A program made the position numbers and the translations under genes. Shown here piece by piece: positions 41,605 through 63,109 of a DNA stretch of 64,000 bases. Location of the stretch: positions 8,704 through 72,703 of the forward strand of contig JAYWAC010000199.1 in assembly GCA_043782755.1 (NCBI GenBank), read 5' to 3'. This DNA is from Pseudomonadota bacterium (GTDB taxonomy: Bacteria; Pseudomonadota; Gammaproteobacteria; Ga0077536). The notes under the pieces were generated by a model. It was not told the origin of the DNA. It did not search any database and worked only from the letters and a program-made list of their open reading frames with translations. How positions within the stretch are numbered: the stretch's first letter is position 1; every line of letters starts with the position of its first letter.

Positions 41605-41607
41605 GAT

Positions 41608-43180: not shown

Positions 43181-43684
43181 ATGCACGACAAGAAACGCTA
43201 CATCGCGGGCCTGCTGCTGCTGGTCGCAAGCCACGCCTATGCCGACTTCAACGATGGCGTGGTGGCGCTGATGGCGGGCAAGTTCGAGACCGCACTAAAG
43301 GTCTTCGTGCCGCTCGCAGAGACCAATAATCACGCCTATGCCCAATACTTCCTGGCGCGCATGTACGAGCGCGGTGAGGGCGTGCCCCAGGACCGCAAAG
43401 CCGCAGCCAAGTGGTATCGCAAGGCCGCCGAGCAAGGGGTCAACGATGCCCAGTTCCACCTCGCCACGATGTACGAAAATGGCGACGGCGTGCCCAAGGA
43501 TATGGAATACGCCTATGGCTGGTACAGCGTCGCGGCCCACCTCGGCAGCGCCAAGGCCGGGCCGGCCCTGGAGCACACTAAGAACCAGTTGCGCGGGGAT
43601 GAGCTGGTCGAGGCCGACAAGCTGTCGCGGGAATTGATTACGAAATACGGCACGGTGCCGGAAAGTACATCGCGCGCGCAATGA
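43181..43684 (+). CDS. Sel1-repeat (SLR/TPR-like) secreted protein
   Basis: Signal peptide; three Sel1 repeats (AQYFLARMYERGEGVPQD, AAKWYRKAAEQG, AQFHLATMYENGDGVPKD). Confidence 0.7.
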   Translation: MHDKKRYIAGLLLLVASHAYADFNDGVVALMAGKFETALKVFVPLAETNNHAYAQYFLARMYERGEGVPQDRKAAAKWYRKAAEQGVNDAQFHLATMYENGDGVPKDMEYAYGWYSVAAHLGSAKAGPALEHTKNQLRGDELVEADKLSRELITKYGTVPESTSRAQ

Positions 43685-43982: not shown

Positions 43983-44762
43983 TTATTCCTTGGCGCCGCG
44001 CTTGCGCGCACGGGTCTTGGGTGCATCGGCCGGTGGGTCGACCAATTGCATGAGTTTGTCGAGGTTGGCGAGCGAGTACATGTGTTGATAGATCAGATCG
44101 AGATAACCCTGGTCCATGAATTCCTTGAGCTGCTCGGGCTTAAGCTTCTGCAGGCGCTCGCGCGTCACACAGAAAAAGCCACTCAATGAGTAAGTGCCCC
44201 CAGAGTTTAGTGAAATATTCGCCTGGGTGGAATCCAGCAGGTCAGCCTTGACGAGGGCATCACAGAATCTGGTCGTGGCCTGGGTGGCAAGCAGGAAGTC
44301 CTGCAGAAATTTGACGCTGTTGGCGAGATAGGGGCTCTGCTCACCGCCCTCGGCCAGCAGACGCTCGCCCTCTTTGGCGGTGTTGAAGCCCGAATAGGTC
44401 TCGTCGATGCAGACCGTATATTGCTCGGGATTGGCATCGGTATTGGCCAGGATATAGGGATAACGGCGCAGGTAGGCCGGCACGTAGGTACCCTGCCAGG
44501 CGCCGTCGACGCCGATCAAGAGGTTCTGATCGGTGGCAATGCCGAGCAGCACCGTCGGCACCGCCACACCACTGCTGTCGCGCGCGAACACCACGGCATA
44601 TTCGCGCGCTGCGATCGCGAATTCGCTGGCGGCGAGATAGATGGAATTGGTCCCTGCGGCGAAGGAATAGCCTTGGTCGGAGTCGATGTACCAGTCGGCG
44701 TGGCGCTCGCGATTGAGCGCCGTGACGTTGCGGTACAGGAGCGGGAGTAAGGGTTCGGCCAT
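43983..44762 (-). CDS. SapC-family protein
   Basis: Matches the SapC family pattern as I recall it (YSFA, EF..AA..Y..VF, W.G.YVPAYLRRYPY.LA). Start ATG at 44762 is 1 nt after the TpsA TGA stop. Confidence 0.5.
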   Translation of the reverse strand: MAEPLLPLLYRNVTALNRERHADWYIDSDQGYSFAAGTNSIYLAASEFAIAAREYAVVFARDSSGVAVPTVLLGIATDQNLLIGVDGAWQGTYVPAYLRRYPYILANTDANPEQYTVCIDETYSGFNTAKEGERLLAEGGEQSPYLANSVKFLQDFLLATQATTRFCDALVKADLLDSTQANISLNSGGTYSLSGFFCVTRERLQKLKPEQLKEFMDQGYLDLIYQHMYSLANLDKLMQLVDPPADAPKTRARKRGAKE

Positions 44763-44763
44763 A

Positions 44764-47700
44764 TCAATACCGGCGATGCAGGGTCGGAAGGATGACGTCG
44801 CCACTCCAGATTACAGCGCCCTCGGCGTCGAGTCTGACGAGCCCAGCGAGCTGGTTGACGGCGCTCGGCGCCAGGACTTCGTTCAACAGTTCGGTGTCGG
44901 GCAGTTCCTCGAGTTCGTCGAAATCATCAGCCGGCGCCGCGTCTTTTTTGGCGGGCGGCGCAGTGGGCTTGGTCGTCGGGCGCGCGGCGGGTGCGGGACT
45001 CTGCTCCAGAGTCTCGAAACCTTCGTCGACATCGGCGGGCGGCGGCTCGGGCGCGGCCTTGACCGGCGGCGTCGCAGGCGCCTCCTCCAGCGGCGCGAAC
45101 AGGTCTTCGCTGCCCTCCTCCAGGGACGGCAGATCGGCGGCGGGCGCCGCCTTGCTGTCCTTGCCAGCCGCGGCGGCGGGCGGCTGTGCACCGGTGTCTG
45201 GCTTTTCCTCGGCCTCGATCACGTCCTGGAATTCGTCACCACCGACGTCGTTCTTTTTCTGCTTCTCGAGATAGGCGTGCAGCTGGGTCTGGTAGTCGCG
45301 ATAGCTGGCGAGTTCTGCGCGGTACTGGCTGAGCAGCGCTTCGCCCTTGTCCTTTGGTGTCGCGCCACTCGCCATCGATTTCTCAATGGCGGCAATGCGC
45401 TGATCGAGACCGTCAATCAAGGTGGCCAATTGCTCCTCGGTGACACTGGGCGCACAACCCTCGGCGTCTTCGCACTGATCCAGCGACTTGGCGATACCGT
45501 CGCCCATCACCCCGAAGAGCGTGAGGTCTTCCTCGAACAGCGAGGAATCGACGAAGGCCACGGCTTGCAGAATGGTGAGAATGGCCGCCGGGTTGGGAAA
45601 GGACGCGCGGGTGTTCTGCAACAGATTGGCCGGTGCACCAAGCGCGGTCAGCGAACCGATAAGAGCGGTGGCGGTGACGTTGGTGGTCGACGCTTGCGCG
45701 CGTGACCGAACGTTGAAGTCGATGCGGGTCTTGGTGGCGCGCGCACCCTGCGCGACCAGCACTTCGCCACCCGCCAGATTCATGATCATGTTGGTCGAGT
45801 TCTGCACTTCATTGGTCGCGGCCAGCATCACGCGCCCACCGGTGAAGGTCACGGTATTGCCGCTGGTGGGTGCACTGATATTGCCGAGCTTCACACCACC
45901 GGGTAATCCATCATTGCCGGCCTGCACCTTGTCGCCCAGCGCCATCACGACGATGGTGCCATCACCCGGCGCGCCGGCGCCGACGGTGATGTTGTTGCCC
46001 TTGGAAAAATCCACCGTGCTGCCGATCAGCAGCAGATTGCCACCGGTCAAGAGCGATTCCGAGACCGTGATGTAGTCGGCCGGTGCGGACAACACCGTAC
46101 CTTTCAGGACATCGCCACCGGGCGCCGCAGCGAATTGACCGCCGATGGCGAGCGTGCCCTTGAAGTTACCGAACTTGTCAGCGGCGATGTGACCGGGACC
46201 ATCAACCAGGTCGATGAACATATCGGTGTTGGCGGTCGGCACGATGCTGAGCGTCACGCCGACATCGGCCAAAACCTGGTCGTTGAAATCAAAGATGTTG
46301 CTGGAGGACGCCAGCTTGACCGTGTTCTTGATGGTCAAGGGGCCATTGAAATGCAGATCCTGTGCGCTGACATCGACACCCAGTATCGTGGCGCCGTTGA
46401 AATTTAGATTGCGTCCGGTGACGGCACCCTGCAGCTCGGCGTTGGCACCGAAGCGCACATCACGCGCAGTGATGTTGCCGCGCAGCAGGGTATCGCCGTC
46501 GTAGCTTTGATCGGCGCCATTGGTCACGACGTTGTCGAAAGTTGCCTTGCCGCCCGCGACGTTCGATCCGAAGGCGCCATTGACCGTCACGTTGCCGCGC
46601 ACGGTGATGTCACCACTGCCGGTCGCGGTCAAGGTCAGCGGCGCGTTGTTGTTGATGTCGCCGACCACACGCAGGCCGAGATTGCCGACGTCGACATTGC
46701 TCTGGGCGAAACTCAAGCTGCTGGCAGTGACCGTGCCAACGACAGACGCTGGCGCGCCCGGCACGCTCAACACGCCGTTGCCGCTGGTGGTCAGAGCGTC
46801 GACGCCGCTGAACGCCAATTGATCGCTGGCCGCGCCGGGCACACCGCGCAACACGCCGGCGCCATCGCTGCTCAAGATCCAGGTCGCATCGACCAGTGAC
46901 TTCAATTCGTCCTTGGCGCCGGCGCCCATGTTGATAGTGTTGGTGGTACCGCTAGGCGCACCGGTCAAGGTCACGGCGTCGTTGCCGCTGCCGAGAGTCA
47001 AGGTTTCGACACCGGAGAAATCACCGGCGAAGGTGCTGCTGGTGGCGTTCATGCCCGCGTTCGTAGCACTGCTGATGCGCGCCGTGATGGCGGAGGTATA
47101 GGCACTCACGTCGACCAGGTCATTGCCCGCACCGAGATTCAAGCTACCAGCCACGCGCGCGCCGGCGCCAAAGGTCACGGTGTCATTACCGCCATTGGTG
47201 AGGATATTGCCGGCCCAGGTCGTGCCGGCCTGCAGCGTGACCGCGTCGCCGCCGGTTTCGCTGAAGCCAGTGGTCAGGCTCAAGCCGGCGTCACCGATGT
47301 GATTGATATTGATGGCGGAAGTAGTGGCCGCACCGCTGCTGCCGGTGATAGTCACCGTCAGCGCGTTCGCGCCGGTCACGGTGAATTGATCGGCGCCACT
47401 GCTGCCCAGCATGAAGTTGTGGGTGCTGGCGGTGCCGGCGACGAAATCGCCGCCGTCGATACCAACGAACAACTGCGGCGTGATATTGGACGACCCTTCT
47501 TCCTTGAAGATGAAGATGTCGCGCTTGTTGCCGCCACGGATGCTGAAGTTCTCAAAGGTGGTAGTGGCGGTAGCAAAGGTATTGCCGTAACGGCCGCGAC
47601 CGTTGCCGGTGATAATCCACACGGTGTCGATGTCGGCACCCTGCAATTGCGTGCCATTACCGATCACCCCATCGACGTCGAAATAAGTACCGCTGATCAG

Positions 47701-50700
47701 CGGCAGATCGGGCGGGCTGCTGATGGTGGCATCACGCACCGTGCCGGCCTGGCCACTGCCGGAGTCGTTGTCGGTCACGGCATTGACCAACACCAGATCC
47801 GAACCACTGTAGTCAAGCGTGTCGACACCGGTGCCGAGATTGATGCTGCCTATCAGGCGTGAAAATTCGCCAGAACTGGGGTTGGTTGGCGGTGAAGTCT
47901 CATGTGCGCCAAACAACACCGTGTCATTGCCATTCTCACCGAGAATGTTGGCGGTCAAGGTGGTATTGCTGCCGCCGTTAGCGATGATGATGAACACATC
48001 ATTGCCCGCGCCGCCGGCCAATTGGCCGAAACTGAGTGCGCCGCCGGTCGCAGCGGTGAAGGTATCAACCGCGCTGCCACCCTGTAGATTTTCAAAGTCC
48101 GTGAAGGTGAATTCTGGCGTGCCGTCCGGCGCGCCGTTAGGCGTGTCGTCGATCGTGCCCGCGCCGCTGCCGGTCAGATCCCACGCACTCTGCTGGTTGC
48201 GGCCCACCAATTTGTCGTTGGTGGCGGCGCTACCGATGAAGGATTCAAAGCCACTGAAATTCGCGAAGGTCGAGCTGCCATCGGCGGCGCTGCCGCTCTG
48301 CAGATTGACGGTGACCGCAGTGCCGCGCGTCTGATAAGTGAAGGTATCAAGGCCAGCGCCACCATCGACATTGCCGCTCACCGATCCCGCCACGGCGATG
48401 GTCACGCTATCGGCGCCACTGCCACCTTGCAGTTGTTCAAAGCCGGAAAAGTCGAACTCAACTGAACTCGGTGCGCCGACCGAGGTGTCATCAATGGTGC
48501 CGGCATTGGCGCCGGTCACGGTCCAGTTGCTGTCGTTATCAGTGCCGATCAGCCTGTCACCGCTGCCACTGCCGCCGACCAAGGTTTCGATGTTGGCGAA
48601 GTTGCCAATGTCGGTTGCGGTGAGATTGGCGAGATCGATCGTGACGGCGGTGGCGCGCGTCCCATAGCTGAGAGTGTCGTGACCACCGAGGCCGTCGATG
48701 GTGCCGCTCAAACTGCCACCGGTAGCGAGATTAAAGGTGTTGGCGCCGGCATTGCCTGTCAGGTTTTCGATGCCCGACCAGGTGCCACTCAAACCAGATG
48801 CCGTGCCACTGTTGGCGCCAGTCACGGTGTAAGTGTTGTTGCCGGCGAGCGTATCGTTGCCAGCACCACCGATGACCGTCTCGACGGCGGTGAAACTATC
48901 GACCACCAGACCATTGCCTATGCTGCCGGCATTGAGCGCGGTGGAGATGAAATCGAGATCGACGCCAAGGCCGCTGGCATCGATGCGATCGCCACTCGAC
49001 GCACCACCGACAATGGTGAAACCGCCGGGCGCGGTCGCGCTGACGATTTCATCGATGTTGAAATTCGAGGCCGTGCCGCTCTGACCAAAGCTGGCATCGA
49101 GGCTACTGACGGTGAGCGTGTTGCTGGTGAAATTCAGATCGCGCGCGGCGACCAGCGTGAAGTTGTCGGTCGCGACGTCGGTATAGGGGCCGGCCAGGGT
49201 CAGCGCAGCGCTAGCACCGGTAGTACGAATATCGACGCTGTCGGCGCCTGCGCCGGTGTCAAGATTCTCGACTGTCAACGAGACCGCCGAGGTGACGAAC
49301 ACATCGCCGCCGGAAGTCGCCTCCAACGCACTGCCACCAGTCAAGGCCACTCCCAGCGCGTTGACGCGGCTCACACCAAGGGTGCTGCCAGCGTCAAGTA
49401 TCAGGTTGGCACCACCACTCTTGGCCAGCACCGCACCGGCGGTGTCGCGTATCGCGCCGCTGCCGGCGGTGATGGTCTGTGCACCCGCACCATTGAAGGT
49501 GCTGGTGCCGGCGCCCTGGAAGATCACATTGCGCGCGGCACTCAAGTCGCTGTTGGTGGTGATGTTGTCGGCGATGATCAAATCGTCGCCCGCGCTCTGC
49601 ACATCGATGTCGCCAGTGGCGGTGATGGCCGTGCTGCCGGCAAGGATGAGATTGCCGGCCGCGCCGGCGGTCTTGGTCAAGCCGACGGTCGACAGCGTGC
49701 CGCCCTGCGCGTCCAGAGTCTGCGCCACCGCGCCATCCAGCGTGCCGACGCCAGCGAGAGTGATATTGCCGCTGGCGGTCAAATCACCGGCCAGCTCGAA
49801 GGCGTTGTTGATCGAGAGGTTGCCGTCGTTGACCGCGACATCACCGCTGATGTGGATGAACGTCGGGCTGACCAAGGTGAGGTTGCCGTTCGACGCCTTG
49901 CTCAAGGAATCGATGGTCAAGCTGCCGCTGCCATCGGTGCCGGCACGCAAGGTTTGATTGGCGCTACCGCTGGCGGCCACCACCACAGTGATGCCGGACA
50001 AGTCGAGATCATCGGCCGCCGCCAATGAACCCAAGCCGAGGTCGAGCGTGCCACTGCCGCCACCGAGTGAGCCGATGGTGGCGTTCTGATCGTTGATGTC
50101 AAACGTTGCACCGACCGCGATCGTGATCGCACCGGCATTGCCGACGCCGCCGGCCGCACCGAGCTTGAGTACACCGGCATTGATCTGCGTGTCGCCGGCA
50201 TAGCTGTTGTTGCCGGACAGCACCAGGGTATCGGGTCCGATCTTGCTCAGAGTATTGCCGGCGCCACCGCTGATAGTGCCGCTTATCGTGAAATCGATAT
50301 TGCCTGCCGCGCCGTCGTCGACGTTGATAGTGGCGGCCGTGGCGAGATTCACCGCGCCGCTCAAGGTGCCTGTATTGCTCGCTTTCAAAGCGCCGCTGCC
50401 ACCATCGCCATTGCCGTTCAGGCTGAGATCCTCGTTGGAGGTGCCGGTGAAGGCGACTTCCAAAGTACCGCCATTGACGGTCGTGCTGCCGGTCGCGCTG
50501 CCGAGACTCGCGGTCGACGCGGCGCGCAGCGTGCCGCCCGAGATCAGTGTTACGCCGTTATAACTGCCGGTGCCGACGGTCAGCGTTTGGGTGCCGCTGC
50601 CTGACTTGCTCAGCGACAAAGTATCGCCACCGACTTCAGTGATATCACCTGCGTAGCTGCCGCCACCGCCGGAAATATCCAAGCTCGCGGTATCGGCGAC

Positions 50701-53700: not shown

Positions 53701-56700
53701 GGTGCCCGCCACGCCATCGAGTTTGGCGATGGCCTGATCGAAACCGGCGAGATTCAAACTCGCGCCAGCAGTGCTCAAGTTCACACCCGCACTATTGTCG
53801 AGGACATCGGCCGCACCGGCCACCAAAGCGCCCTGAGCGATGATGGTCGCACCGCTATAGCTATTGGCGGCATTGGCCAGCACCAGGCTGCTGGTACCGG
53901 CCTTGGTGAGACTGCGTGCGCCGCCGCTTTCGCCGATGGCGGCATTCATGGTCAAGGTGCCCGCGCCACCGATGGTGGCATCGCCGCTCAAGTTCACGGT
54001 ATTGGTCGCCGCCAGCGAGACTGTGCCGGTGCTGGTCAAGGCGCCGACACCGCCGTTACCGGTGCCGCTCAAATTCAAGGTCTCGGTCGAAGCCAAGGCC
54101 ACGCCGTTCAAATTCAAAGTGCCACCGTTAGCGGTAGTCTGTCCGGTGGCGGTGCCGAGGCTCGCGCCGGTGCTGATCGATAAGGTGCCACCGCTGATGG
54201 TGGTCGCGCCGCCGTAGGTACCGTTCACCACGGCCAGACTCTGGGTGCCCGTGACCGACTTGGTGAACGACAAGGTATCGCTGCCGTTCTCGGTGATATC
54301 ACCGGCGTAAGCGCCGCCGCCAGCGGTGATGGTCAGGGTCGCGACATCGCCAGTATTGCCAACGTCATTGCTCACCACCGCGCCCGCCACGCCATCGAGT
54401 TTAGCGATGGACTGATCGAAGCCGGCCAGATTGAGCGTCGCGCCGCTGACCGACAGATTGACGCCCGTGCTGTTGTCCAGCACGTTGGTCGCGCCGGCGG
54501 CGAGCGTGCCTTCGTTCACCGTGGTCGAACCGCTATAGCTATTGTTGCCGATCAAAGTGACGAGACCGGCACCGGCCTTGGTCAAGGAGCGCACACCGCT
54601 TTCGCCGATAGCCGCGTTGATGGTGAACACGCCCACGCTGGAGATAGTGGCATCAGCGGTCAAGGTGATGGTGTTGCTCGCGGCGATCGATGACACACCG
54701 GTGCCGAGCAACGCGCTGCTGTTGCCGAGGCTGATGGCCTCGCTGCTGGCGAGATTGAGACTGCTGAGATTAAGCGTGCCGCCATTGACGAGCGTGCCGC
54801 CGACGGCGGTGCCGAGACTCGCGGCGGTGGTGATAGTGAGCTCGCCGCCGGTGACGCTGGTAACGCCATCATAGCTGCCGGTGCCGACCGACAAGGTCAA
54901 CACGCCACCAGTGGATTTGGTCAGCGACAAGGTGTCGGTGCCGTTCTCGGTGATATCACCGGCGTAGGTGCCACCACCGGTAACGGTGAGCGTGGCGCTA
55001 TTGGCGGTGTTGCCGGCGTCATTGGTGACGACGCTGCCCGCCACGCCGTCAAGTGCATCGACGGTCTGATCGAAACCGGCCAGATTGAAAGTCGCGCCGG
55101 CGGCCGTGAGGTTGAGATCGCCTGGACCAAGTACATTGTTCGCACCGGCCTGCAAAGTACCGCCACTGACGATGGTGTTACCGGTGTAGGTACTGCCGCC
55201 ACCGGACAAAATCTGCGTGCCGGTGCCGGACTTGGTGAGCGTCAAGATATCGCTGCCGTTCTGCGTCAGGTTACCCGCGAAGCTGCCGCCGCCAGCGGTG
55301 ATGGTCAAGGTCGCGACATCGGCACTGGCGCCAGCATCGTTGATGACGACCGTGCCGGTCACGCCATCGAGTTTCTTCAAGCTTTGATCAAAACCCGCGA
55401 GATTGAATCGCGCACCCGACACCGAGAGATTGAGTCCACTGCTGTTATCGAGCACATCGGCCGCGCCCGCTGCGAGCGTGCCGGCGCTGACCGTCGTCGC
55501 GCCGGTGTAGGTGTTGTTGCCCGCCAGGATCAGACTGCCCGCGCCGATCTTGGTGAGCGCGCGCGGACTACCGCTTTCGCTGATCACCGCGCCTATCGTC
55601 AGCGTGCCCGCGCCGCCGATCGACGTATCGCCATCCAGCACCACGCTATTGCCGCTGTCGATCGAGGCCGTGCCGGTTTCGCTCAATGCGCCGATGCCCG
55701 CGTTGCCAGTGCCGCCCAAATGAATGGTCTCGCTGCCGCTCAAGGAAACGCCATTCAATTCCAAGGTGCCGCCATTGGCGGTGGTCGCACCAGTATTCGA
55801 ACCGAGACTCGCGGCGGTGATGATGCTGAGGGTGCCGCCGATGATGGTGGTAGTGCCGTCGTAGCTACCCGTCGCCACCGACAGACTCTGAGTGCCGGTG
55901 CCCGACTTGAGCAGTGACAGGGTATCGCTGCCGTTCTCGGTGATGTCACCGGCATAGCTGCCGCCGCCGCCGGTGATGGTGAGCGTGGCCGTATCGGCGC
56001 TCGCGCCCGCGTCATTGGTGACCACCGCACCCGCCGCGCCATCGAGTTTGGCAATCGATTGATCGAAGCCCGCCAGATTGAATACGCCGCTCGCACCCAT
56101 GTCGAGACCCGTGCCATTGGTCAGCACGTTCGCGATGCCCGCTTGCAAGCGACCAGCGCTGACATGGGTCAGGCCGTTGTAGTTCTGCGCGGCGGTCATG
56201 ACCAAGCTACCGGCACCGATCTTGGTCAAGGACAAACTGGCCGCGCCATCGCTGAGTGCACCGACCTCCAACACGCCGCCGGCGTTCGCCACGTCGATCG
56301 TGGTGTCGTCGGTGGCACCGACGTTGGTCAAGGTTATAGTCCCCGACAAGGTCAGGGTATTGGCAGTCGAATGTCGCAGCGCGGCCGAGCCACCGCCATT
56401 GCCTTCGATGCTGAGGTTTTCAGCGATGGTGGCGTCCGCACCCAAGGCAAATTCGAGCTGTGCGTCGTTGGCCACCGTGGTGCCGCCCAGCGCGTCGCCG
56501 AGACCGCCCGCATCGGTGACCTTGAGCAGGCCGGCGTTGACCGTAATGGTGCCCGCCGCGCCGATGAAGTCGGCGGAATTGTCTGCCGCCAGGACCAGGG
56601 TGCCGCTGCCGGTCTTGGTCAGCGCGCGCGTGCCGCCGTTATCGATCGTGGTCAAGAGCGTGAGTGTGCCGCTGCCACCGATGGTGGCATTGCCGCTCAT

Positions 56701-59655
56701 GGTCAACACATTACTGGCACCAATCGAGGACGTACCGGTCGCGGTCAGGGCACCGACATTGCTGATACCACTGCCCTTGATATCGATGGCTTCGGTGCTG
56801 GCCAGCACCAGGTTGTTCAAGTTCAAGGTGCCGGTAGCGGACACCACCGTGTCATCGGTCGCGTCACCGAGGCTGTTGGCAGTGGTGATGGTGAGCGTGC
56901 CGTCATTGACGGTCAGCAAACCTGCGTAGGTGGTTGCGCCGATACTGAAAGTCTGCGACCCGCTGCCGGTCTTCACGATCGAGATATCGTCGGCGGTGTT
57001 ATCGAAGACGGTGCCACTGAAAGTCTGAGCATTGCCGCCATTGATGGTCAGCGTGACAGGGTTGGCGCCGGGGTCGTCATTGCTGACCACACCGCTGCCC
57101 GCCAGACCGGTCACAGTCTGATTGGTAGTCTCCATCTCGAAGCGCGCGGTCGCGCCGCTGATATTCAAGATGCTATTAGCGAATACGTTGTCGACGCCGG
57201 CGACGATGCTGCCGGCACTCAAGGTGGTGGTACCGGAATAAGTGCTGGAGTTGTTCAGAGTCAGCAGGCCGCTGCCGAGTTTGTCGAAGCCGAAAGTCGC
57301 GCCGCTGATCACACCATTCAGTATCAACTCGGTGCCCGGCACGTCGATGTGGCTGTTGGCGGTCAGCGCGATATTGCCGTCGAAACTGGCAGAACCCGTA
57401 CCGCGCAAGGTGCCGCCGGCCAAGGTCAAGGCTTCGGCGCCGACACTGACGTTGTCGAGATCGAGCGTGCCCGTGCCACTGACGGTGGTGCCGCCATTGG
57501 TGGTACCGAGACCATCGGCATTGGTGACATGCAATACACCGGCGCTGACGGAAGTCGCACCGATATAGCCATTGGCCTCGCTGAGCGTCAGCGTGCCGTC
57601 GCCAATCTTGCTCAAGGCAGTTGAACCGACGATCAATTTACCTGCCACCTGGGTGGCGGTGCCGGCGCGGATATCGGCGCTGAAGGTCGCGCCACCCGTG
57701 GTGATCTCACCGAAAGAGCCACCCGTACCGGAGATCAGCGTGACGGACCCGGTAGTCGCGCCGCCGATATTGGTTTTCACGCCACCGGCAGTCAGCGTGC
57801 CGGACGCGGCGCTGAAGGTCACCGCGCCGCCCTTGGTCTCGATGATGTCGTTCTGATCGGCGAACACCACGTTGCCGCCGGTCGAGCGTAGGGTCAGGCT
57901 GCCGGTGGTGAGATCGAGATGAACCGCGTTGTTGGTGGTGACTGCGCTGGACGAGGCGCCCGTCACATCATTGACCGTGAGCAGGCCCGTCGCTTCGAGA
58001 ATGATGTTGGTGGTGACAGCGAGGCTGTCGACCTTGCCCCAGCTTATGGTGTTGGGCGCGGCGTCGGCTTCGCCCGCAGCCAGATTCGCGTCGACATTGG
58101 AGATAGTGCCGTCCAGAGAACCGCCGTTATTGGCGTCGATGATGGTGAGGGTCGACGGATCGAGCAACAGTGTGCCGGGCGCACCGCGCGCTGCACTGGT
58201 ATCGACCTCACCGGCGAAAGTCAGATCCTGTTTGCCCGACACTTCCACCATCCCACCATCGCCACCGCGCTTGCCGCCCTGCGCGGAAATCTTGCCATGA
58301 AAGCGCGTGCTGTCGTCGGACCAGACCACGACCTTGCCGCCGTCGCCGGTGCCGGTGGCGTCGGCCTTGAGAGTGGCCGCGCTGCCGACGAAGACTTGTT
58401 TAGCGTTGGTGATACTCGAATTCGCACCGTGCAGGTCGCCGCCGAGCAGCGCTTCGCCACCGCCCTTGTGACCGGAGACATTTAGCGCGGCATCGAAATT
58501 GAAAGCGAGCTGTTCGGCTGTCGCCTTGACGCGACCGCCGGTGGCGCGCGTGCTGGTCGCCGAGACCTGACTGCCTTGATTGAAGTCCAGCTTGGTGCGG
58601 GCTGCGACATCAATGCTGCCGCCATCACCGCCGCGCGCGTCGGCGGCGAGCGTGCCGCGATTTTCGATTTCATTGCCACGGATGGCGATCTGCCCACCCT
58701 TGTCCGTGGCGGTTGCGGCCGAGGCGTCGATGGTGCCGGTGTTCAACACCGACGCGCCGGATCCTGTACCGACCAGCAGAATCTTGCCGCCGCTCTTCTC
58801 GATGCGGCCAGCCTTGAGCACGCCGGCATTGTTGATGGCCTTGTCGAACACGCCGGCCGCTGCGCTCGCCGTGATCAGAATCTGGCCACCGTCGGCATTG
58901 ATCTGACCACTGTTGGCGACCTGGTCTGCAAGCTTGGCGGCGTTGTCGATGACCGCCTTGTCGACTTTGAAACGCAACAGCCCATCGCCATCGAAATCGA
59001 CCGTGGCCTGTTCACCCGCCAGCAGATTGACGCGGCCGGCGGTGGCCATGATTACGCCTTCGTTGGCGACGGATTTGCCGATCAGCGCGACATCGCCGCC
59101 CTTATCGGCTGTGATGCTGCCCTGATTGACGACGCGACCATCACCGCCGTCCTGCGCGCTCAGCTGGTAGCGACCACTCATGAACTCATCGATGCCGACG
59201 TGCATCGCGCCCGCAATCAAGCCGCCGACGTTCACTTCCGCGCCGGGCCGGAAGAACACGCCATTGGGATTCATCAACACGACTTGGCCATTGGCCTTGA
59301 TCTGGCCAAATATCTCGCTCGGCTTCTGATCGAAAATGCGGTTTAGCGCGCTGGACTTCGCGTTAGGTTGCTGGAAACGCACCTGCTCGCCCTTGGCAAC
59401 ATCGAAGCTCTGCCAGTCGATGGCGGTGCGCTGGCTGTGCTGGCTGATGGTGGTGACACGGTGGGCGGCGTCCTGACTGATGTTGGCGCGGCCGGCACGC
59501 ACCTGACCGCCGACCGGCGCAGCGGCGAGCGGCGCGCTGGCAAAGGTCGCGACGAGTCCGGGCAGAAGCGCGAGCTGCACTGAACGGGCGAGCCGCGTGA
59601 GACGGAATGGCGACCGTGCCGCAGCGCCGTCGGCGATGTGATTACGCATATTCAT
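44764..59655 (-). CDS. Giant two-partner-secretion exoprotein (TpsA / filamentous-haemagglutinin-family adhesin), about 4960 aa
   Basis: AAGGAG RBS 7 nt before the ATG at 59655. N-terminal extended signal region; TPS domain with NPNGV motif (QVVLMNPNGVFFRPGAEVNVGG). About 24 tandem PATR repeats (L.K.G.GTLTLSG.N.YTG.TTV..GTL). RTX-like GGxGxD nonapeptides (GGAGNDTLA, GGSGADSVT, GENGNDTVL). C-terminal coiled coil and Pro/Glu-rich region. Confidence 0.9.
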   Translation of the reverse strand: MNMRNHIADGAAARSPFRLTRLARSVQLALLPGLVATFASAPLAAAPVGGQVRAGRANISQDAAHRVTTISQHSQRTAIDWQSFDVAKGEQVRFQQPNAKSSALNRIFDQKPSEIFGQIKANGQVVLMNPNGVFFRPGAEVNVGGLIAGAMHVGIDEFMSGRYQLSAQDGGDGRVVNQGSITADKGGDVALIGKSVANEGVIMATAGRVNLLAGEQATVDFDGDGLLRFKVDKAVIDNAAKLADQVANSGQINADGGQILITASAAAGVFDKAINNAGVLKAGRIEKSGGKILLVGTGSGASVLNTGTIDASAATATDKGGQIAIRGNEIENRGTLAADARGGDGGSIDVAARTKLDFNQGSQVSATSTRATGGRVKATAEQLAFNFDAALNVSGHKGGGEALLGGDLHGANSSITNAKQVFVGSAATLKADATGTGDGGKVVVWSDDSTRFHGKISAQGGKRGGDGGMVEVSGKQDLTFAGEVDTSAARGAPGTLLLDPSTLTIIDANNGGSLDGTISNVDANLAAGEADAAPNTISWGKVDSLAVTTNIILEATGLLTVNDVTGASSSAVTTNNAVHLDLTTGSLTLRSTGGNVVFADQNDIIETKGGAVTFSAASGTLTAGGVKTNIGGATTGSVTLISGTGGSFGEITTGGATFSADIRAGTATQVAGKLIVGSTALSKIGDGTLTLSEANGYIGATSVSAGVLHVTNADGLGTTNGGTTVSGTGTLDLDNVSVGAEALTLAGGTLRGTGSASFDGNIALTANSHIDVPGTELILNGVISGATFGFDKLGSGLLTLNNSSTYSGTTTLSAGSIVAGVDNVFANSILNISGATARFEMETTNQTVTGLAGSGVVSNDDPGANPVTLTINGGNAQTFSGTVFDNTADDISIVKTGSGSQTFSIGATTYAGLLTVNDGTLTITTANSLGDATDDTVVSATGTLNLNNLVLASTEAIDIKGSGISNVGALTATGTSSIGASNVLTMSGNATIGGSGTLTLLTTIDNGGTRALTKTGSGTLVLAADNSADFIGAAGTITVNAGLLKVTDAGGLGDALGGTTVANDAQLEFALGADATIAENLSIEGNGGGSAALRHSTANTLTLSGTITLTNVGATDDTTIDVANAGGVLEVGALSDGAASLSLTKIGAGSLVMTAAQNYNGLTHVSAGRLQAGIANVLTNGTGLDMGASGVFNLAGFDQSIAKLDGAAGAVVTNDAGASADTATLTITGGGGSYAGDITENGSDTLSLLKSGTGTQSLSVATGSYDGTTTIIGGTLSIITAASLGSNTGATTANGGTLELNGVSLSGSETIHLGGTGNAGIGALSETGTASIDSGNSVVLDGDTSIGGAGTLTIGAVISESGSPRALTKIGAGSLILAGNNTYTGATTVSAGTLAAGAADVLDNSSGLNLSVSGARFNLAGFDQSLKKLDGVTGTVVINDAGASADVATLTITAGGGSFAGNLTQNGSDILTLTKSGTGTQILSGGGSTYTGNTIVSGGTLQAGANNVLGPGDLNLTAAGATFNLAGFDQTVDALDGVAGSVVTNDAGNTANSATLTVTGGGTYAGDITENGTDTLSLTKSTGGVLTLSVGTGSYDGVTSVTGGELTITTAASLGTAVGGTLVNGGTLNLSSLNLASSEAISLGNSSALLGTGVSSIAASNTITLTADATISSVGVFTINAAIGESGVRSLTKAGAGLVTLIGNNSYSGSTTVNEGTLAAGATNVLDNSTGVNLSVSGATLNLAGFDQSIAKLDGVAGAVVSNDVGNTGDVATLTITAGGGAYAGDITENGSDTLSFTKSVTGTQSLAVVNGTYGGATTISGGTLSISTGASLGTATGQTTANGGTLNLNGVALASTETLNLSGTGNGGVGALTSTGTVSLAATNTVNLSGDATIGGAGTLTMNAAIGESGGARSLTKAGTSSLVLANAANSYSGATIIAQGALVAGAADVLDNSAGVNLSTAGASLNLAGFDQAIAKLDGVAGTTVTNNSVAVADSATLNITGGGGSFAGNLTEVGGDTFSLTKSGTGTQILSGGGNTFTGVTTISGGVLKAGVANLLAQSAGLNISNAGAIFNLAGFDQSIVKLDGVAGAVLTNDVGSTGDVATLTITGGGGSYAGNITENGTDTLSVTKSTSGTQVLSVGTGTYDGATTVTGGTLKVTTAASLGSSSGGIVINNAANAGATLELATPGGTTIADAITFSGGNNPTLLHSTVGTTTVTGGMVMTSAGTANISQAAGTLAVTTVGISGAGTLTKSGPGTLQLGVATTLGGLDLSQGVLAIGLANALAASTNLTLAAGTTFNLHGFNQTIASLSGTGTVTNDDAVGTSNAAATLTIAAGGGSFAGDITESADDVLSLTKSGTGTQVLASTNSYTGVTTVSGGTLAAGAANILTNSAGLNLTTSGATFNLAGFDQSIVAVTGVAGAIVTNNAGNVGDVATFTITGNGGNYAGNITQTVTDTLSFTKAGTGTQILSGSGNTYSGATTVNGGTLQAGANNVLGATSGLILNGAGATFNLAGFDQLLGKLDGAAGTVVTNNAGNIADVATLTITGGGGSFSGDITENGSDTLSLTKSGSGTQTLAVATGSYDGATTVSGGTLLINTAASLGNASGQTTASTGTLDLGGLALASSETINLTGSGAGGAGALIGSNAVAAGNAIVLTGTGAIGTTATLTINAVIGGSGNLSKVGAGTLVLSGNNSYAGGTTIAQGTLAAGAGNVLDNSSGVSVASGARLNLAGFNQALTKLDGVAGSVVTNDAGGGGSAATLTISGGGGSYAGNITQNALDDLSLTKSGSGAQSLSVVSGTYAGATSISGGTLSISTAASLGTTAGQTTANGGTLDLNGLALASSESVNLSGSGNGGVGALTATGTSSLANSVSVTLIDNATLGGAGTLTINTAIGESGGARSLTKSGAGTLVLSNGANTYSGATNVAQGTLKAGVADVLANSSGLNLTASGAIFNLAGFDQTVSKLDGVAGSVVTNNSAAVADTASLDISGGGGSYAGDITEVGGDTLSLSKSGSGTQTLTVGTGSYNGVTLISGGTLRAASTASLGSATGSTTVNGGTLEVAFTGTSNEDLSLNGNGDGGSGALKASNTGTLSGAVNLATAATINVDDGAAGNIDFTISGTISGGAGNTLSKIGPDTLVLSGNNSYAGDTQINAGVLKLGAAGGVGNAGAITIAVGATFDINDQNATIGSLGGGSGTLDLGLGSLAAADDLDLSGITVVVAASGSANQTLRAGTDGSGSLTIDSLSKASNGNLTLVSPTFIHISGDVAVNDGNLSINNAFELAGDLTASGNITLAGVGTLDGAVAQTLDAQGGTLSTVGLTKTAGAAGNLILAGSTAITATGDIDVQSAGDDLIIADNITTNSDLSAARNVIFQGAGTSTFNGAGAQTITAGSGAIRDTAGAVLAKSGGANLILDAGSTLGVSRVNALGVALTGGSALEATSGGDVFVTSAVSLTVENLDTGAGADSVDIRTTGASAALTLAGPYTDVATDNFTLVAARDLNFTSNTLTVSSLDASFGQSGTASNFNIDEIVSATAPGGFTIVGGASSGDRIDASGLGVDLDFISTALNAGSIGNGLVVDSFTAVETVIGGAGNDTLAGNNTYTVTGANSGTASGLSGTWSGIENLTGNAGANTFNLATGGSLSGTIDGLGGHDTLSYGTRATAVTIDLANLTATDIGNFANIETLVGGSGSGDRLIGTDNDSNWTVTGANAGTIDDTSVGAPSSVEFDFSGFEQLQGGSGADSVTIAVAGSVSGNVDGGAGLDTFTYQTRGTAVTVNLQSGSAADGSSTFANFSGFESFIGSAATNDKLVGRNQQSAWDLTGSGAGTIDDTPNGAPDGTPEFTFTDFENLQGGSAVDTFTAATGGALSFGQLAGGAGNDVFIIIANGGSNTTLTANILGENGNDTVLFGAHETSPPTNPSSGEFSRLIGSINLGTGVDTLDYSGSDLVLVNAVTDNDSGSGQAGTVRDATISSPPDLPLISGTYFDVDGVIGNGTQLQGADIDTVWIITGNGRGRYGNTFATATTTFENFSIRGGNKRDIFIFKEEGSSNITPQLFVGIDGGDFVAGTASTHNFMLGSSGADQFTVTGANALTVTITGSSGAATTSAININHIGDAGLSLTTGFSETGGDAVTLQAGTTWAGNILTNGGNDTVTFGAGARVAGSLNLGAGNDLVDVSAYTSAITARISSATNAGMNATSSTFAGDFSGVETLTLGSGNDAVTLTGAPSGTTNTINMGAGAKDELKSLVDATWILSSDGAGVLRGVPGAASDQLAFSGVDALTTSGNGVLSVPGAPASVVGTVTASSLSFAQSNVDVGNLGLRVVGDINNNAPLTLTATGSGDITVRGNVTVNGAFGSNVAGGKATFDNVVTNGADQSYDGDTLLRGNITARDVRFGANAELQGAVTGRNLNFNGATILGVDVSAQDLHFNGPLTIKNTVKLASSSNIFDFNDQVLADVGVTLSIVPTANTDMFIDLVDGPGHIAADKFGNFKGTLAIGGQFAAAPGGDVLKGTVLSAPADYITVSESLLTGGNLLLIGSTVDFSKGNNITVGAGAPGDGTIVVMALGDKVQAGNDGLPGGVKLGNISAPTSGNTVTFTGGRVMLAATNEVQNSTNMIMNLAGGEVLVAQGARATKTRIDFNVRSRAQASTTNVTATALIGSLTALGAPANLLQNTRASFPNPAAILTILQAVAFVDSSLFEEDLTLFGVMGDGIAKSLDQCEDAEGCAPSVTEEQLATLIDGLDQRIAAIEKSMASGATPKDKGEALLSQYRAELASYRDYQTQLHAYLEKQKKNDVGGDEFQDVIEAEEKPDTGAQPPAAAAGKDSKAAPAADLPSLEEGSEDLFAPLEEAPATPPVKAAPEPPPADVDEGFETLEQSPAPAARPTTKPTAPPAKKDAAPADDFDELEELPDTELLNEVLAPSAVNQLAGLVRLDAEGAVIWSGDVILPTLHRRY
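50050..57625 (-). repeat. Tandem array of about 24 autotransporter-associated beta-strand (PATR) repeat units, about 105 aa / 315 nt each, inside tpsA
   Basis: Recurrent protein motif ...TKSGTGTQ.LSG.N.YTG.TTV.GGTL.AGA.NVL...GLNL...GA.FNLAGFDQS..KLDG.AG.VVTNDAG...D.ATLTITGGGGS.AG.ITENG.DTLS. The similar periodic shadow ORFs on the + strand (for example 50888, 51563, 53864, 54542) show the DNA-level periodicity. Confidence 0.7.
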
Positions 59656-59907
59656 GCGGTCGCTCCTTCCTCGGCATTCGAGATCGATCGAATGTCCGTG
59701 GCCCATGATGGTGTGCGGGCCGTGTTGTAGTGTGATTCAAGCGCCGCACATCGGCGGGCGGCTGAGAAACTGCCGCGCTTAACATAGTGCGCGCCCCAGC
59801 TACGCGAAACCGTTACATATTCCCGCATACCCGCCGACGGCGGTGTGCAGGCCTTGCGCACCTTACCGTCACGTCCTCCGGTCTGACGCCGCACACCCGT
59901 TCCTCGC

Positions 59908-61938
59908 TCAGAAGAACAGGTTGAAATCCAGCCAGTATTTCGGTCCCCAGCCGCCTTGCGGACGCGGGCTGCTGCCGACCGGTGCGGCCATGGTGAGCTT
60001 GGTGGAAAACCGCTTGGGATTATTGAACGACAGTGCGACACCGACGGAATTGAAATTCCCAGATTTGCGTTCGGTGGGCGTGAGCGCGCTGTTCAGATAG
60101 CCCGAAGCGACATCGTAAAACATAGAAAACTGCACCAGCTCGCCCCAGGTGCGATTGCCGAAAGCCGGCACGTCGGAGATAAACGGGGCGTTGATGATCC
60201 ACTCCACCGAACCGAAAATAGCGCGATCGAACAATTTCTCGGTTGGACGATAGCCGCGCACGTTGTCCGGACCGCCGACGTCGTATTGCTCGAGCGGTAC
60301 CAGCAGATCGGGCGACCACATCACCTCGGTGGTGAACAGCAGGTTGTGATTCTTGAGTTTGTCCCACAGCGGCGTCAGTGCCTGGAAGCGCGACAGTCGC
60401 AGCATGACCTTGTTGAAATCGCCTTCGGCGAACTTGCCGTTGCCGCCTTGGCGGGTCGGCGGTACGAAGGCTGGGTTCTTGCCCATCGCGCCGAACAGAT
60501 CATTAAAACCGTGGGAGATCTCGAGACTGCCGGTATTCAGTCCGCCAAAGCGCGCATCGACCGAATCGAAATTGAATTCACCCGAAGCGACCGCCAAGCT
60601 GTCGATGTTCTGCTTGCGGCCATCGGCCTTGGTGCCGCTGCGTTTCTTGGCAAAGCGCGCGGTGGCGCTGAAATTCATTAGGCGGCTGCGGATGAAACTC
60701 TTGGTCAACGAGACGTTGTAGTTGCGAATGTCGCTGTGGATTTTGGCGTCGCGAAACTGACCGCCGACGTCGAATTGATTGCGGTCCGCGCCGAAGCCGA
60801 GCTGGGTGTCATATAGCAGCGGGATCGGGATCTGATAATCGAGCGCATAGAACCAGGTGTTGGCCGGCGCCACGGTGCGCTGGATGGTGGTGGTGAATTT
60901 GTCGCCCTGACCGAGCGGATCGTTGACCGTCACGCGGCCGAGCTCACGATTGAGGCCGGTCTCGCGGATGCCATGGTTGTCCCAACGCAAGGCCGCCTCG
61001 ACACGCTTCTCGTCCTGCACCTTCAACATCATGTCAGCGCTACCGACGCGGGTGCCGGGCTGGAACACACCGAAAGACGACAAGCCCGGGTTGTCCGACA
61101 CGGTGAGCAGCGCGGTCTCAATCGATTCCTTGGTCACCGGCTCGCCAACGAGCTTGCCGAATGGTCGCGTTAGCACGGCGGGCTTGTACATCTTGTTGCC
61201 CTCGGTCACGACTTTGCCGAGCACGCCTTCCATGACCTGAATCTTGACCTCGCTACTTTCCACCGACTGCACCGGCACAAAGGCTTGCGCCAGGATCAGG
61301 CCATGGTCGCGGTAGTACTTAGTGACGGTGTCGGCTACTTCCTGCAGGCGACCGACGGTGAAACCGTCCGGCCGCTCAGCGAGTTTGGCGTCGATCAGGG
61401 CCTGCACCTCAGCGACCGCGATGTTGTGCTTGGGCCGGTCGATGACGCCTTCGAGCACGAAGCGCTTGACCTCGACCTTGTCGCCATCGTCGATTTCCAA
61501 AGGCCTGTCGGCCAGTGCCGGCACCGAGAAGGTCTCGGGCGGCGGTGCCTTGGGCGGCTCGCGCGGCTTCTCGCCGGGTCGGATCGCGCCGGGCTTGGCC
61601 GCGTCGGGGAGATCGACGGCGGCCGCTAACGAGCTTTCATTGACGGCCATGGCGGCGGCCAACTCGGGGCGCGCCGGGCCGGGCCGCGCGCTCGGCACTG
61701 CGGCAGAAGACGCAGGAGAAAGTTCTTGTGTAGCCACCACTTGCGGACCAGCCACCGACATATCGAAGGCTGGACGGATGGCTCCGGGACGGGCCGTGGC
61801 GAGATTGTCATCTGGTTCGACGACGGCGGCAAACGACAGGCTCGCACGCGCCACGATGCCTGCCATGCAAAGTGCATGCAGGCAGCGCAACGCTGGCCCT
61901 CGCCTAGAGTCGCCCACTATATGCATAAGACCATTCAA
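59908..61938 (-). CDS. TpsB outer-membrane transporter (ShlB/FhaC/HecB family; POTRA domains + 16-strand barrel)
   Basis: POTRA region VKRFVLEGV...; conserved loop-6 VRGY motif (DNVRGYRP); C-terminal ...YWLDFNLFF aromatic terminus. Start codon uncertain (MNGLMH / MHIV). Confidence 0.85.
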   Translation of the reverse strand: MNGLMHIVGDSRRGPALRCLHALCMAGIVARASLSFAAVVEPDDNLATARPGAIRPAFDMSVAGPQVVATQELSPASSAAVPSARPGPARPELAAAMAVNESSLAAAVDLPDAAKPGAIRPGEKPREPPKAPPPETFSVPALADRPLEIDDGDKVEVKRFVLEGVIDRPKHNIAVAEVQALIDAKLAERPDGFTVGRLQEVADTVTKYYRDHGLILAQAFVPVQSVESSEVKIQVMEGVLGKVVTEGNKMYKPAVLTRPFGKLVGEPVTKESIETALLTVSDNPGLSSFGVFQPGTRVGSADMMLKVQDEKRVEAALRWDNHGIRETGLNRELGRVTVNDPLGQGDKFTTTIQRTVAPANTWFYALDYQIPIPLLYDTQLGFGADRNQFDVGGQFRDAKIHSDIRNYNVSLTKSFIRSRLMNFSATARFAKKRSGTKADGRKQNIDSLAVASGEFNFDSVDARFGGLNTGSLEISHGFNDLFGAMGKNPAFVPPTRQGGNGKFAEGDFNKVMLRLSRFQALTPLWDKLKNHNLLFTTEVMWSPDLLVPLEQYDVGGPDNVRGYRPTEKLFDRAIFGSVEWIINAPFISDVPAFGNRTWGELVQFSMFYDVASGYLNSALTPTERKSGNFNSVGVALSFNNPKRFSTKLTMAAPVGSSPRPQGGWGPKYWLDFNLFF

Positions 61939-62080
61939 TAAGCCCGCTAACGCACTGAATAACTGGGCCTACTTCGGCGCCCATCGGACCTCGGCGAGTA
62001 TAGCAACGTCCTTTCGAGTGCGGCAACGGCCGAGCGGGCCTAGCGCCACCGCCAGCGATCAGACCAGCCCCGCCACACCT

Positions 62081-63109
62081 TTAGGGCTGGACGGCAGCAG
62101 TCGGCGCGGCGGCCGGTGCCGGCGCGGCCTGCTTGATGAGATCCTGACGCCAAGTCTCGAGCGCGTCGGCAGCCGGCGCCTCGACCGGATACTCTTTCTC
62201 TATCTTCTCGATCGCGGCCTGACGGACCTTGGCCATCGCTTCCTGCACCATGCGTGCGCGCAACTGATCCCGTACGCGCTCGAAGTCCAGCATCTCCGCT
62301 TCAACGGTCGCGCCACGTTTCAAGATATGCAGGCCAGTCTCGGACGCTATCGGCTCGCTGACCTGGCCAGTCTTGAGTTTCTTCAGGGCCTCGGCTATCG
62401 GCGGCAGCAGATCGGCCGATTTGAGCAAGCCCATGTAGCCATCGTTGACGCGGCTCGCCTCGTGAGCGGAATACTGCTTGGCCAGCGCGCCAAAATCGCC
62501 CTTGCCGCCACGCAGCTCGTCGGACACGCGGTTGGCCCGCGCCCAGGCAGTCTTGACTTCCTTATCGGGCGCGGCGGGATCGAGCGGGATAAAGATCTGC
62601 CACAGATGCACTCGCTCCGGCACGCGGAAGGCATCGGGATTCTTGTCATAGGCTTCGCGCACCTGGCTGTCGCTCGGGAATTTCGGATCGAGATTCACGC
62701 GTACCACCTGATTCAGATAGGACTCGACCAGCACACGCTGGCCGGCACGCTCCATGACGGTTTTGATCTGCGCGTTCTCATCAGCCTTGTTGGCATAGGC
62801 CGCCTTCAAGACCGCCTGATTGAGGGTTTCCTGATGCACGAACTGTTTGAAGACATCGGCGGAAGTCAGGATCTCGTTGCGACGCGGTGCATCGACGATA
62901 CTCAATACCTCGCCGAGCAGCTTGGCATCCAGCGTGGCGGTCGTGGAGCGGGTTTTAGCTTCGCTGGCGGCCGCTTTTACGGCGGGGGTATGTGGCTCTT
63001 TGGCCGCTGCGATCGTGTCGGGCGCGAGCAGGAAGCGCTGGCCGAGTGCGCCAGCAACGATGAGTAGCGCGCCGAACAAGAGTGCGGCGGGGGTCGACAG
63101 ATTTTTCAA
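62081..63109 (-). CDS. Parvulin-type peptidyl-prolyl cis-trans isomerase (SurA/PpiC-like periplasmic chaperone, N-terminal membrane anchor)
   Basis: N-terminal hydrophobic anchor PAALLFGALLIVAGAL; rotamase domain HLWQIFIP...GDFGALAKQYS...GYMGLL...GLHILK. Apparent TTG start. Confidence 0.72.
   Translation of the reverse strand: MKNLSTPAALLFGALLIVAGALGQRFLLAPDTIAAAKEPHTPAVKAAASEAKTRSTTATLDAKLLGEVLSIVDAPRRNEILTSADVFKQFVHQETLNQAVLKAAYANKADENAQIKTVMERAGQRVLVESYLNQVVRVNLDPKFPSDSQVREAYDKNPDAFRVPERVHLWQIFIPLDPAAPDKEVKTAWARANRVSDELRGGKGDFGALAKQYSAHEASRVNDGYMGLLKSADLLPPIAEALKKLKTGQVSEPIASETGLHILKRGATVEAEMLDFERVRDQLRARMVQEAMAKVRQAAIEKIEKEYPVEAPAADALETWRQDLIKQAAPAPAAAPTAAVQP

Follow-up and report, generated by a model that had tools for sequence, protein, structure and literature searches.

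Two-partner secretion (TPS) systems are as a rule described with two genes, and the third genes known from their loci encode immunity proteins or glycosyl- or acyltransferases. In EtpBAC of enterotoxigenic Escherichia coli (ETEC) and HMW1ABC of Haemophilus, the third gene codes for a cytoplasmic glycosyltransferase. CdiC/HlyC-type acyltransferases belong to some contact-dependent inhibition (CDI) and RTX loci, and Aah/TibC occur with autotransporters. The Bordetella FhaB/FhaC system is a TPS system with a periplasmic parvulin, Par27. The SapC family was named after the type I secretion cluster sapCDEF of Campylobacter fetus, and its function was never established. The window analysed here, a stretch of 64,000 nucleotides (nt) of contig JAYWAC010000199.1 (positions 8,704 to 72,703 of the forward strand; assembly GCA_043782755.1), carries genes for a giant TpsA exoprotein and its TpsB transporter, directly followed by a SapC-family gene. 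Judged by its sequence, the locus is a true operon for type Vb (two-partner) secretion, conserved in the chromosome and belonging to an uncultured gammaproteobacterium. The TPS system itself is of a known kind. SapC, together with a small open reading frame (ORF), as a member of such an operon and the link between SapC and giant proteins are new.

The operon occupies the minus strand at about 43.7–63.1 kb of the window. Gene calls of the source were taken from a matching metagenome scaffold (L088; L numbers denote the loci compared). Five co-directional genes code, from 5′ to 3′, for a parvulin-type peptidyl-prolyl isomerase (PPIase), TpsB, TpsA, SapC and a small protein of 86 amino acids (aa) (Table 1). 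An earlier sequence-only reading had listed the first four, and each was found in its place; the fifth, conserved gene had been missed. That reading had also set the SapC start 1 nt behind the TpsA stop, and the junction indeed reads TGA-T-ATG. The assignment of the downstream gene to SapC, named there as one point at which the proposal could fail, is firmly supported. PF07277 matches over its full length (profile positions 1–220 of 220) with an E value of 7.5e-66 and a score of 222.3 bits (gathering cut-off 28.9).

Table 1. Coordinates of the operon genes, of regions within tpsA and of the flanking genes, in positions of the window.
Feature	Position	Strand	Basis or remark
Parvulin-type PPIase, 342 aa	62081..63109	-	PF00639, PF13145, PF13616; same extent in source-scaffold gene call
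TpsB, Omp85-family transporter, 652 aa as called	59908..61866	-	PF03865, POTRA_2, NVRGY, C-terminal ...NLFF
AAGGAG ribosome-binding site of tpsA	59663..59668	-	Read from sequence, 7 nt before ATG 59655
TpsA, 4963 aa + stop, predicted giant non-toxin exoprotein	44764..59655	-	ORF, translation, source-scaffold gene call
TpsA N-terminal signal-like region, long (aa 1–46)	59518..59655	-	Precedes TPS domain
TPS secretion domain of TpsA (aa 57–299), NPNGV motif	58759..59487	-	PF05860, TIGR01901
PATR / autotransporter-type beta-strand repeat region, about aa 681–3166, 18 repeats	50158..57615	-	PF12951, TIGR02601; bounds approximate (motif search)
Repeat module of ~100 aa, 3 copies detected (aa 3606–3930)	47866..48840	-	Iterated HMM built in this analysis
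Conserved C-terminal module of TpsA	44767..46209	-	Conservation among relatives
SapC-family protein, 259 aa	43983..44762	-	PF07277 full-length match
Small conserved ORF, 86 aa	43712..43972	-	ORF; genes called at equivalent site in relatives
Class III nucleotide cyclase, start only (window end cuts gene)	63345..64000	+	Translation; divergent from PPIase
Sel1-repeat protein with signal peptide, convergent with operon	43181..43684	+	ORF; PF08238 in relatives
leuC, leuD	40966..43008	-	Flanking genes

The longest open frame of tpsA extends from 44764 to 59706. The likely start is the ATG at 59655, 7 nt after the AAGGAG sequence, which yields 4963 aa. The source-scaffold gene call has the same length, and both the giant size of roughly 4960 aa and the strong ribosome-binding site had been read correctly before. 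The N-terminus consists of a charged stretch and a hydrophobic run ending in ...APLAAAP, a putative Sec signal. The TPS domain with its NPNGV motif, also part of the sequence-only reading, is recognised by PF05860 in the N-terminal 543 aa (E 1.6e-36; the Pfam scan of the whole protein did not list this family) and by TIGR01901 in full-length TpsA (E 2.9e-21). The 18 PATR repeats are matched by PF12951 (E 5.5e-84) and TIGR02601 (E 2.2e-97). The profiles proposed earlier for checking the TPS genes, PF05860, PF03865 and PF12951, all matched in the expected genes. PATR repeats are usually described in classical autotransporters; the passenger of TpsA is largely composed of them. Tandem Repeats Finder detected no tandem repeats in tpsA at the DNA level, which indicates that the repeats are old and diverged. 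The second repeat module, of about 100 aa, follows the pattern W.ITG.NAG...F.GIENLTGG.G.DTF...SG.IDGG.G.DTL.

Among relatives, TpsA is best conserved in its last 480 aa. The C-terminal module starts with a beta-rich domain (aa 4483–4687), continues with a hydrophobic segment and an invariant SLDQCEDAEGCAP core (aa 4688–4817) and ends, after a coiled coil and an acidic, proline-rich linker, with the conserved residues ...LPTLHRRY. A homologue search with the C-terminus retrieved 6 proteins only. An AF2 model of the module (aa 4483–4830, 7 sequences) was poor, with a pLDDT of 62 and values below 50 in the most conserved core. In L004 (2993–3562), L006–L009 and L016, a paralogue of this ‘QCE...C’ core forms an ORF of its own, about 190 aa long, which has a signal peptide and is placed between the giant and SapC. 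One called protein, P0242, joins the TpsA C-terminus to the SapC N-terminus (...LPLFYRQVMPLSRERHRDWYIDPDQGY...). The fusion, probably a frameshift or assembly error, is an independent sign of the adjacency of tpsA and sapC.

TpsB matches the ShlB-type barrel family PF03865 (E 2.9e-23) and POTRA_2 (E 9e-11), has the loop-6 motif NVRGY and terminates in ...NLFF. The earlier description of TpsB held for the VRGY motif and the C-terminal phenylalanine; of the several POTRA domains it mentioned, only one was detected by Pfam. The open frame of tpsB runs to 61938, with an alternative start at ATG 61923, and the gene caller placed the start at 61866. The corresponding gene call, P0121, has 652 aa and matches the 520 aa queried with 100% identity. 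The adjacent genes tpsB and tpsA have the same orientation, an arrangement kept in L088, L089 and L091. The locus has the following sequence features of a type Vb system: the TPS domain with NPNG, the Omp85 features of TpsB and adjacent, co-oriented genes.

The PPIase has a parvulin domain (PF00639, E 1.4e-17, together with PF13145 and PF13616) and an N-terminal hydrophobic anchor; it is likely periplasmic and tethered to the membrane. Its NCBIfam matches were all below the family cut-offs. The gene is located directly upstream of tpsB in relatives with 68% and 47% TpsB identity, and directly upstream of sapC in L022. The proposal of a Par27-like chaperone is consistent with the parvulin domain and with the conserved position beside TpsB; the likeness to Par27 is one of position and domain only. 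Like FhaB/FhaC, the system combines an N-terminal TPS domain with NPNG, an Omp85-type TpsB with POTRA and a VRGY loop 6, and a parvulin PPIase. The layout also resembles the FhaB prodomain, with a giant beta-helical protein, a C-terminal proline-rich stretch and a conserved extreme end, a likeness of layout rather than a demonstrated homology. Unlike in FhaB/FhaC, the PPIase is here encoded in the operon and membrane-anchored, and the passenger consists of PATR repeats; the fha locus is without a SapC gene.

The relatives of the locus are uncultured Gammaproteobacteria. The order PPIase-TpsB-TpsA-SapC-small ORF is complete in two related assemblies. In the first (L089/L090, a contig of 5.7 Mb), TpsB is 68% and SapC 61% identical to the window proteins, and TpsA has 4558 aa. 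In the second (GCA_050183625.1; L091/L092), the identities are 47% for TpsB and 53% for SapC, and TpsA has 5651 aa. The adjacency of tpsA and sapC in related genomes, which the sequence-only reading had left as a decisive check, is conserved. A TpsA C-terminus homologue is encoded upstream of SapC in species-representative genomes (L001–L009 and L016), in other assemblies (L081–L087) and in JGI metagenomes (L095–L102). The gap between the two genes is 1 nt in L081, 2 nt in L090, 2–3 nt in L001 and L002 and 13 nt in L092. Two metagenome-assembled genomes (MAGs) of Desulfobacterota have related arrangements: TpsB-TpsA-SapC in a Desulfobulbus MAG (L025) and TpsB followed by SapC in a Desulfuromonadales MAG (L065). 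In Rahnella rivi (L073), SapC follows a classical autotransporter of 3211 aa. Of the TPS-linked groups in a neighbour-joining tree of SapC, the closest had a bootstrap support of 71% and a second one 90%; a basal group with L065 and L073 reached 78%.

The order tpsB-tpsA followed by a small coupled gene is also that of CdiBAI. An immunity-like or antitoxin function of SapC in the slot of cdiI is suggested only by its position, immediately after tpsA and coupled to it. CdiI proteins are hypervariable and toxin-specific. Unlike in CdiBAI, TpsA has a conserved rather than a polymorphic C-terminus, and the motif search and the Pfam scans revealed no VENN-type motif, PT-VENN or toxin domain, in agreement with the earlier remark that such a module is missing. 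The downstream gene belongs to a large conserved family of 6293 clusters at 50% identity, and the homologues compared share 35–92% identity across classes. SapC is also found upstream of giants and beside non-toxin autotransporters. Because of the missing toxin, the conserved TpsA C-terminus and the conserved nature of the SapC family, the cdiI-like function is rejected as having a negligible probability. TpsA is most likely adhesin-like rather than a CDI toxin.

The window SapC has neither a signal peptide nor a hydrophobic segment, which suggests a cytoplasmic protein. An extracytoplasmic SapC, be it a partner in the periplasm or at the surface or a component of the S-layer type, would agree with the family name and the old annotation in Pfam. 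A preprint (bioRxiv 10.64898/2026.03.19.712371) speculates that SapC stabilises TolC. Such a location is highly improbable given the missing export signals, and family members are stand-alone proteins of about 240–260 aa. SapC of Chromatium okenii is likewise without a signal peptide, according to the genome paper.

PF07277 is the sole Pfam match of the window SapC; families of glycosyltransferases or acyltransferases (HMW1C/EtpC, Aah/TibC, HlyC/CdiC) did not match. An alignment of 33 SapC sequences with identities down to 35% has 23 invariant positions, many of them polar or charged. They include H21, E47, N80, W89, R99-R100-Y101-P102, C118-x-D120-E121 and H227. The family motifs PAYxRRYP and TVCIDE are both present in the window SapC and both invariant. 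The AF2 model of SapC is confident (pLDDT 89), and on this model the fold appears not to be represented in the PDB.

The neighbourhood of SapC was surveyed in the 80 loci most similar to the query from species-representative genomes and in 80 loci from metagenomes, a sample of near relatives and not of the whole family. Loci in which SapC was flanked by 4 kb or more in both directions were assessable, that is, 51 genome and 22 metagenome loci. A locus was positive if it had a co-directional giant ORF of at least 1000 aa within 6 kb, markers of a type V secretion system, a LEPR-XLL giant or a SecA-like/HlyD-like gene set. A giant was recognised by the length of its ORF on the strand of SapC, and domain matches were checked for only some of the giants. 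A giant exoprotein or export genes accompanied SapC in 36 of the 51 genome loci and in 14 of the 22 metagenome loci. The giant was within 700 nt of SapC in 23 and 13 of these assessable loci, respectively. TPS adjacency recurred in this survey, which had been suggested together with the pairing of SapC and a TPS exoprotein. The pairing is real and conserved, and a literature search found no paper mentioning both ‘SapC’ and ‘two-partner secretion’; a wider search on the SapC family gave nothing of relevance apart from the publications considered here. It is not specific to TPS; SapC adjoins giants of several kinds.

The giants accompanying close SapC homologues are TpsA, one classical autotransporter and LEPR-XLL/RTX giants. 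Among 17 giants just downstream of SapC, 15 have an N-terminal LEPR-XLL motif (NF012209), and several carry RTX repeats; SapC followed by a LEPR-XLL giant was found in 16 species-level genomes. TPS-type and LEPR-type giants have the repeat module of about 100 aa in common. The iterated HMM detected 25 copies in the TpsA of L025 and 7–16 copies in L001, L002, L007 and L008. In 12 LEPR-XLL giants just downstream of SapC, 1–2 copies are located at a fixed N-proximal site (aa 160–375).

Two described loci have a comparable neighbourhood. In the epibiont of Chlorochromatium aggregatum, Cag_662 (sapC) adjoins and is co-expressed with the LEPRxLL giants Cag_663 and Cag_665, of 20,647–36,806 aa, and the TolC gene Cag_664 (bioRxiv 10.64898/2026.03.19.712371). 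As in the window, SapC directly adjoins a giant exoprotein. In contrast to the window locus, those giants are LEPR-XLL proteins without a TPS domain or TpsB, and SapC is encoded upstream instead of downstream. In the sapCDEF cluster of C. fetus, the PF07277 gene also stands beside export genes for large secreted surface (S-layer) proteins. The route there is a type I system of ABC transporter, membrane-fusion protein and TolC, whereas here it would be Sec and TpsB. Genes for ABC transporters, membrane-fusion proteins or TolC-family proteins are absent beside sapC and within 36–64 kb of the window.

The observed gene identities, coupling geometry, conservation and neighbourhood statistics are consistent with a TPS operon in which SapC acts as a cytoplasmic accessory factor of the giant exoprotein before export. 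TpsA would be exported by Sec and then by the Omp85-type TpsB, and the membrane-anchored parvulin would assist it in the periplasm. The exoprotein combines the TPS domain, a beta-helix of PATR repeats, the repeat module known from other giant exoproteins and a prodomain-like C-terminus. SapC would be translated by coupling at the end of tpsA. Its subfamily, which accompanies giant exoproteins regardless of the export route, would act on them before export, in the first place as a modifying enzyme and in the second as a targeting or holding factor. In favour of the enzyme are the invariant His, Glu, Arg-Arg-Tyr-Pro and Cys-x-Asp-Glu residues; Iyer et al. (2010; PMC2938197) independently predicted an enzymatic function from the pattern of conservation. 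SapC may also be controlled by the neighbouring module of Ser/Thr kinase, PP2C and FHA-cyclase described below. The explanation as a whole, which draws on sequence comparison and analogy, has about an even chance of being right.

Third genes of the EtpC/HMW1C type are the best functional analogy for SapC. In EtpBAC and HMW1ABC, a cytoplasmic accessory gene stands beside the exoprotein gene and its product acts before export; etpC directly follows tpsA, as SapC does here. SapC differs from EtpC, HMW1C, HlyC and CdiC in having no match to a glycosyl- or acyltransferase family and no structural neighbour in the PDB. In a more specific form of the explanation, SapC would be a cytoplasmic maturation or piloting factor with a new fold, independent of the secretion route. 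In TpsA, autotransporters and LEPR-XLL/RTX giants alike, it would recognise the common ~100-aa repeat or a module at one end, and it would modify these proteins covalently or hand them over to the translocase. In this lineage, the kinase/PP2C/FHA-cyclase module would gate its action. The control of type VI secretion by threonine phosphorylation is an analogue for such gating. This extended form is distinctly tentative.

Several observations weigh against SapC as an accessory factor of giant exoproteins. About one third of the assessable SapC loci have no giant within 6 kb. The HMM did not detect the ~100-aa repeat in several SapC-linked giants, including those of L073, L079, L080 and the Vibrio loci. 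The support values of the neighbour-joining tree are moderate. A fold search of the SapC model against the PDB and sequence searches yielded no relative of known activity. The adjacency of tpsA and sapC co-occurs with leuCD synteny within the gammaproteobacterial lineage, so part of its conservation could reflect vertical inheritance or a stable chromosomal neighbourhood. In L084 and L085, the tpsA homologue is split by an insertion sequence (IS) element with a DDE transposase, and SapC and the small ORF are intact. The tpsA remnants have 526 and 423 aa (L084:5625-9998, L085:5626-9998), SapC is 65% identical, and the synteny of SapC, Sel1-repeat gene and leuCD is kept. Finally, SapC is found in other contexts, which are considered in the following.

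One such context was described by Iyer et al. (2010; PMC2938197), who predicted SapC to be an uncharacterised enzyme from its conservation pattern. There, more distant SapC proteins adjoin a TonB receptor, halogenases and JmjC dioxygenases. As proposed for that context, SapC may be an enzyme of small-molecule or peptide metabolism, whose position beside tpsA would have no functional meaning. The conserved polar residues suit an enzyme, and SapC can occur without giants. The window locus has no biosynthetic genes among its gene calls, the adjacency to giants recurs across phyla and export routes, and SapC is coupled to tpsA over 1 nt. A purely metabolic role is improbable.

The other context is a signalling module. 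Divergent from the PPIase gene, a conserved trio codes for an FHA-domain class III cyclase, a PP2C phosphatase and a Ser/Thr kinase, the last about 1660 aa long and equipped with an FGE-sulfatase-like domain. The genes (PF00211 with PF00498, PP2C, Pkinase with FGE-sulfatase) were called at L088:3-3806, L089:1-6578 and L091:1-6279. The C-terminal FHA domain of the cyclase is seen in relatives; the window cyclase is cut by the window end. A minus-strand ORF at 63243–63947 (234 aa) was rejected as the cyclase gene, as it is the antisense of the plus-strand cyclase gene.

Beside SapC and with no visible TPS gene, the trio was found in four genomes (L021, L022, L023 and L074). In L022, kinase, PP2C and cyclase genes are divergent from PPIase and SapC, which are separated by 52 nt; this is the window order minus tpsBA. 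In L023 and L074, a divergent PP2C gene precedes SapC, which is followed by the cyclase-FHA gene, and in L021 SapC is followed by the cyclase-FHA gene. In L025 (10943–20435), two FHA-domain genes come after SapC, and behind them stand genes of a type VI secretion system for TssK/VasE, DotU/TssL and IcmF/TssM-like proteins. SapC is not strictly dedicated to TpsA or dependent on it, because it occurs without TPS genes and beside a broken tpsA. The pairing described earlier stands for adjacency and coupling, with the refinement that SapC is also present without TPS beside the trio, and in L022 beside the PPIase.

These loci fit a SapC that is mainly a component or target of the kinase-FGE/PP2C/cyclase-FHA module with a regulatory function, for example, as a phospho-dependent FHA partner. 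The genes tpsBA would then have been inserted between PPIase and SapC in this lineage or lost in sister lineages. Upstream of the operon, the divergent trio is conserved; it adjoins SapC in differing arrangements and differing SapC clades, L022 has the window order minus tpsBA, and the FHA-domain and TssK/L/M genes of L025 point in the same direction. However, the trio was present in only 5 of the 80 genome and 0 of the 80 metagenome loci, compared with giants or export genes in about two thirds of the assessable loci. The tight coupling of SapC to tpsA is conserved, and SapC follows T5SS (type V secretion system) genes in Desulfobacterota and Rahnella in the absence of the trio. A mainly regulatory SapC is the main alternative, possible but unlikely. 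It is compatible with the accessory factor of giant exoproteins; a phospho-regulated accessory factor would fit both.

The small ORF starts 10 nt after the SapC stop. Counterparts in relatives have 55–86 aa, and a gene was called at this position in L081–L083, L084–L085, L087, L090 and L092. The C-terminal motif LLxxLIxRMGGxxxSxxKGxYVNLRV is kept in the window, L001, L081–L087, L090 and L092. Neither Pfam nor NCBIfam matched the ORF, and it lacks a signal peptide. The Sel1-repeat gene (PF08238) is found at the same position in L081, L084, L087, L090 and L092 and belongs to a cluster present in 9 loci (cluster 14). Its link to the operon may be one of synteny only. It shares with leuC and leuD a flanking position that is kept in relatives whose SapC is as little as about 45% identical.

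The LEPR-XLL giants have a recurrent set of neighbours: a DUF3467 gene, a GAF-HlyD protein, a PqqD/M50-like-HlyD fusion and a truncated SecA paralogue of about 675 aa. The M50-like part of the PqqD-like fusion is of the daptide type with HExxH. A radical SAM enzyme, two unknown families of about 280 aa and TolC are often encoded alongside. The set is located at L014:3520-9929 and was also seen in L032, L036, L043, L047, L049, L053, L054 and L058, and further in L061, L070, L075, L112, L115, L117 and L120. Possibly the set forms an apparatus, not described so far, that exports or matures giant proteins. In two Brachymonas MAGs (L069:7741-9390, L076:986-2305), a PKMT-type protein-lysine methyltransferase (PF10119, PF21782) is encoded directly after SapC. 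Enzymes of the PKMT family methylate OmpB, an autotransporter of rickettsiae.

With SapC as a conserved gene translationally coupled to tpsA, TPS systems would gain a new class of accessory. The SapC family is large, has carried its name for decades without a function and lacks a solved structure. The close members track giants across type I-like, Va and Vb routes, which narrows the hypotheses on SapC to a pre-export handling of very large proteins. Such a role is open to simple genetics and mass spectrometry and would give an indication of what this orphan family does.

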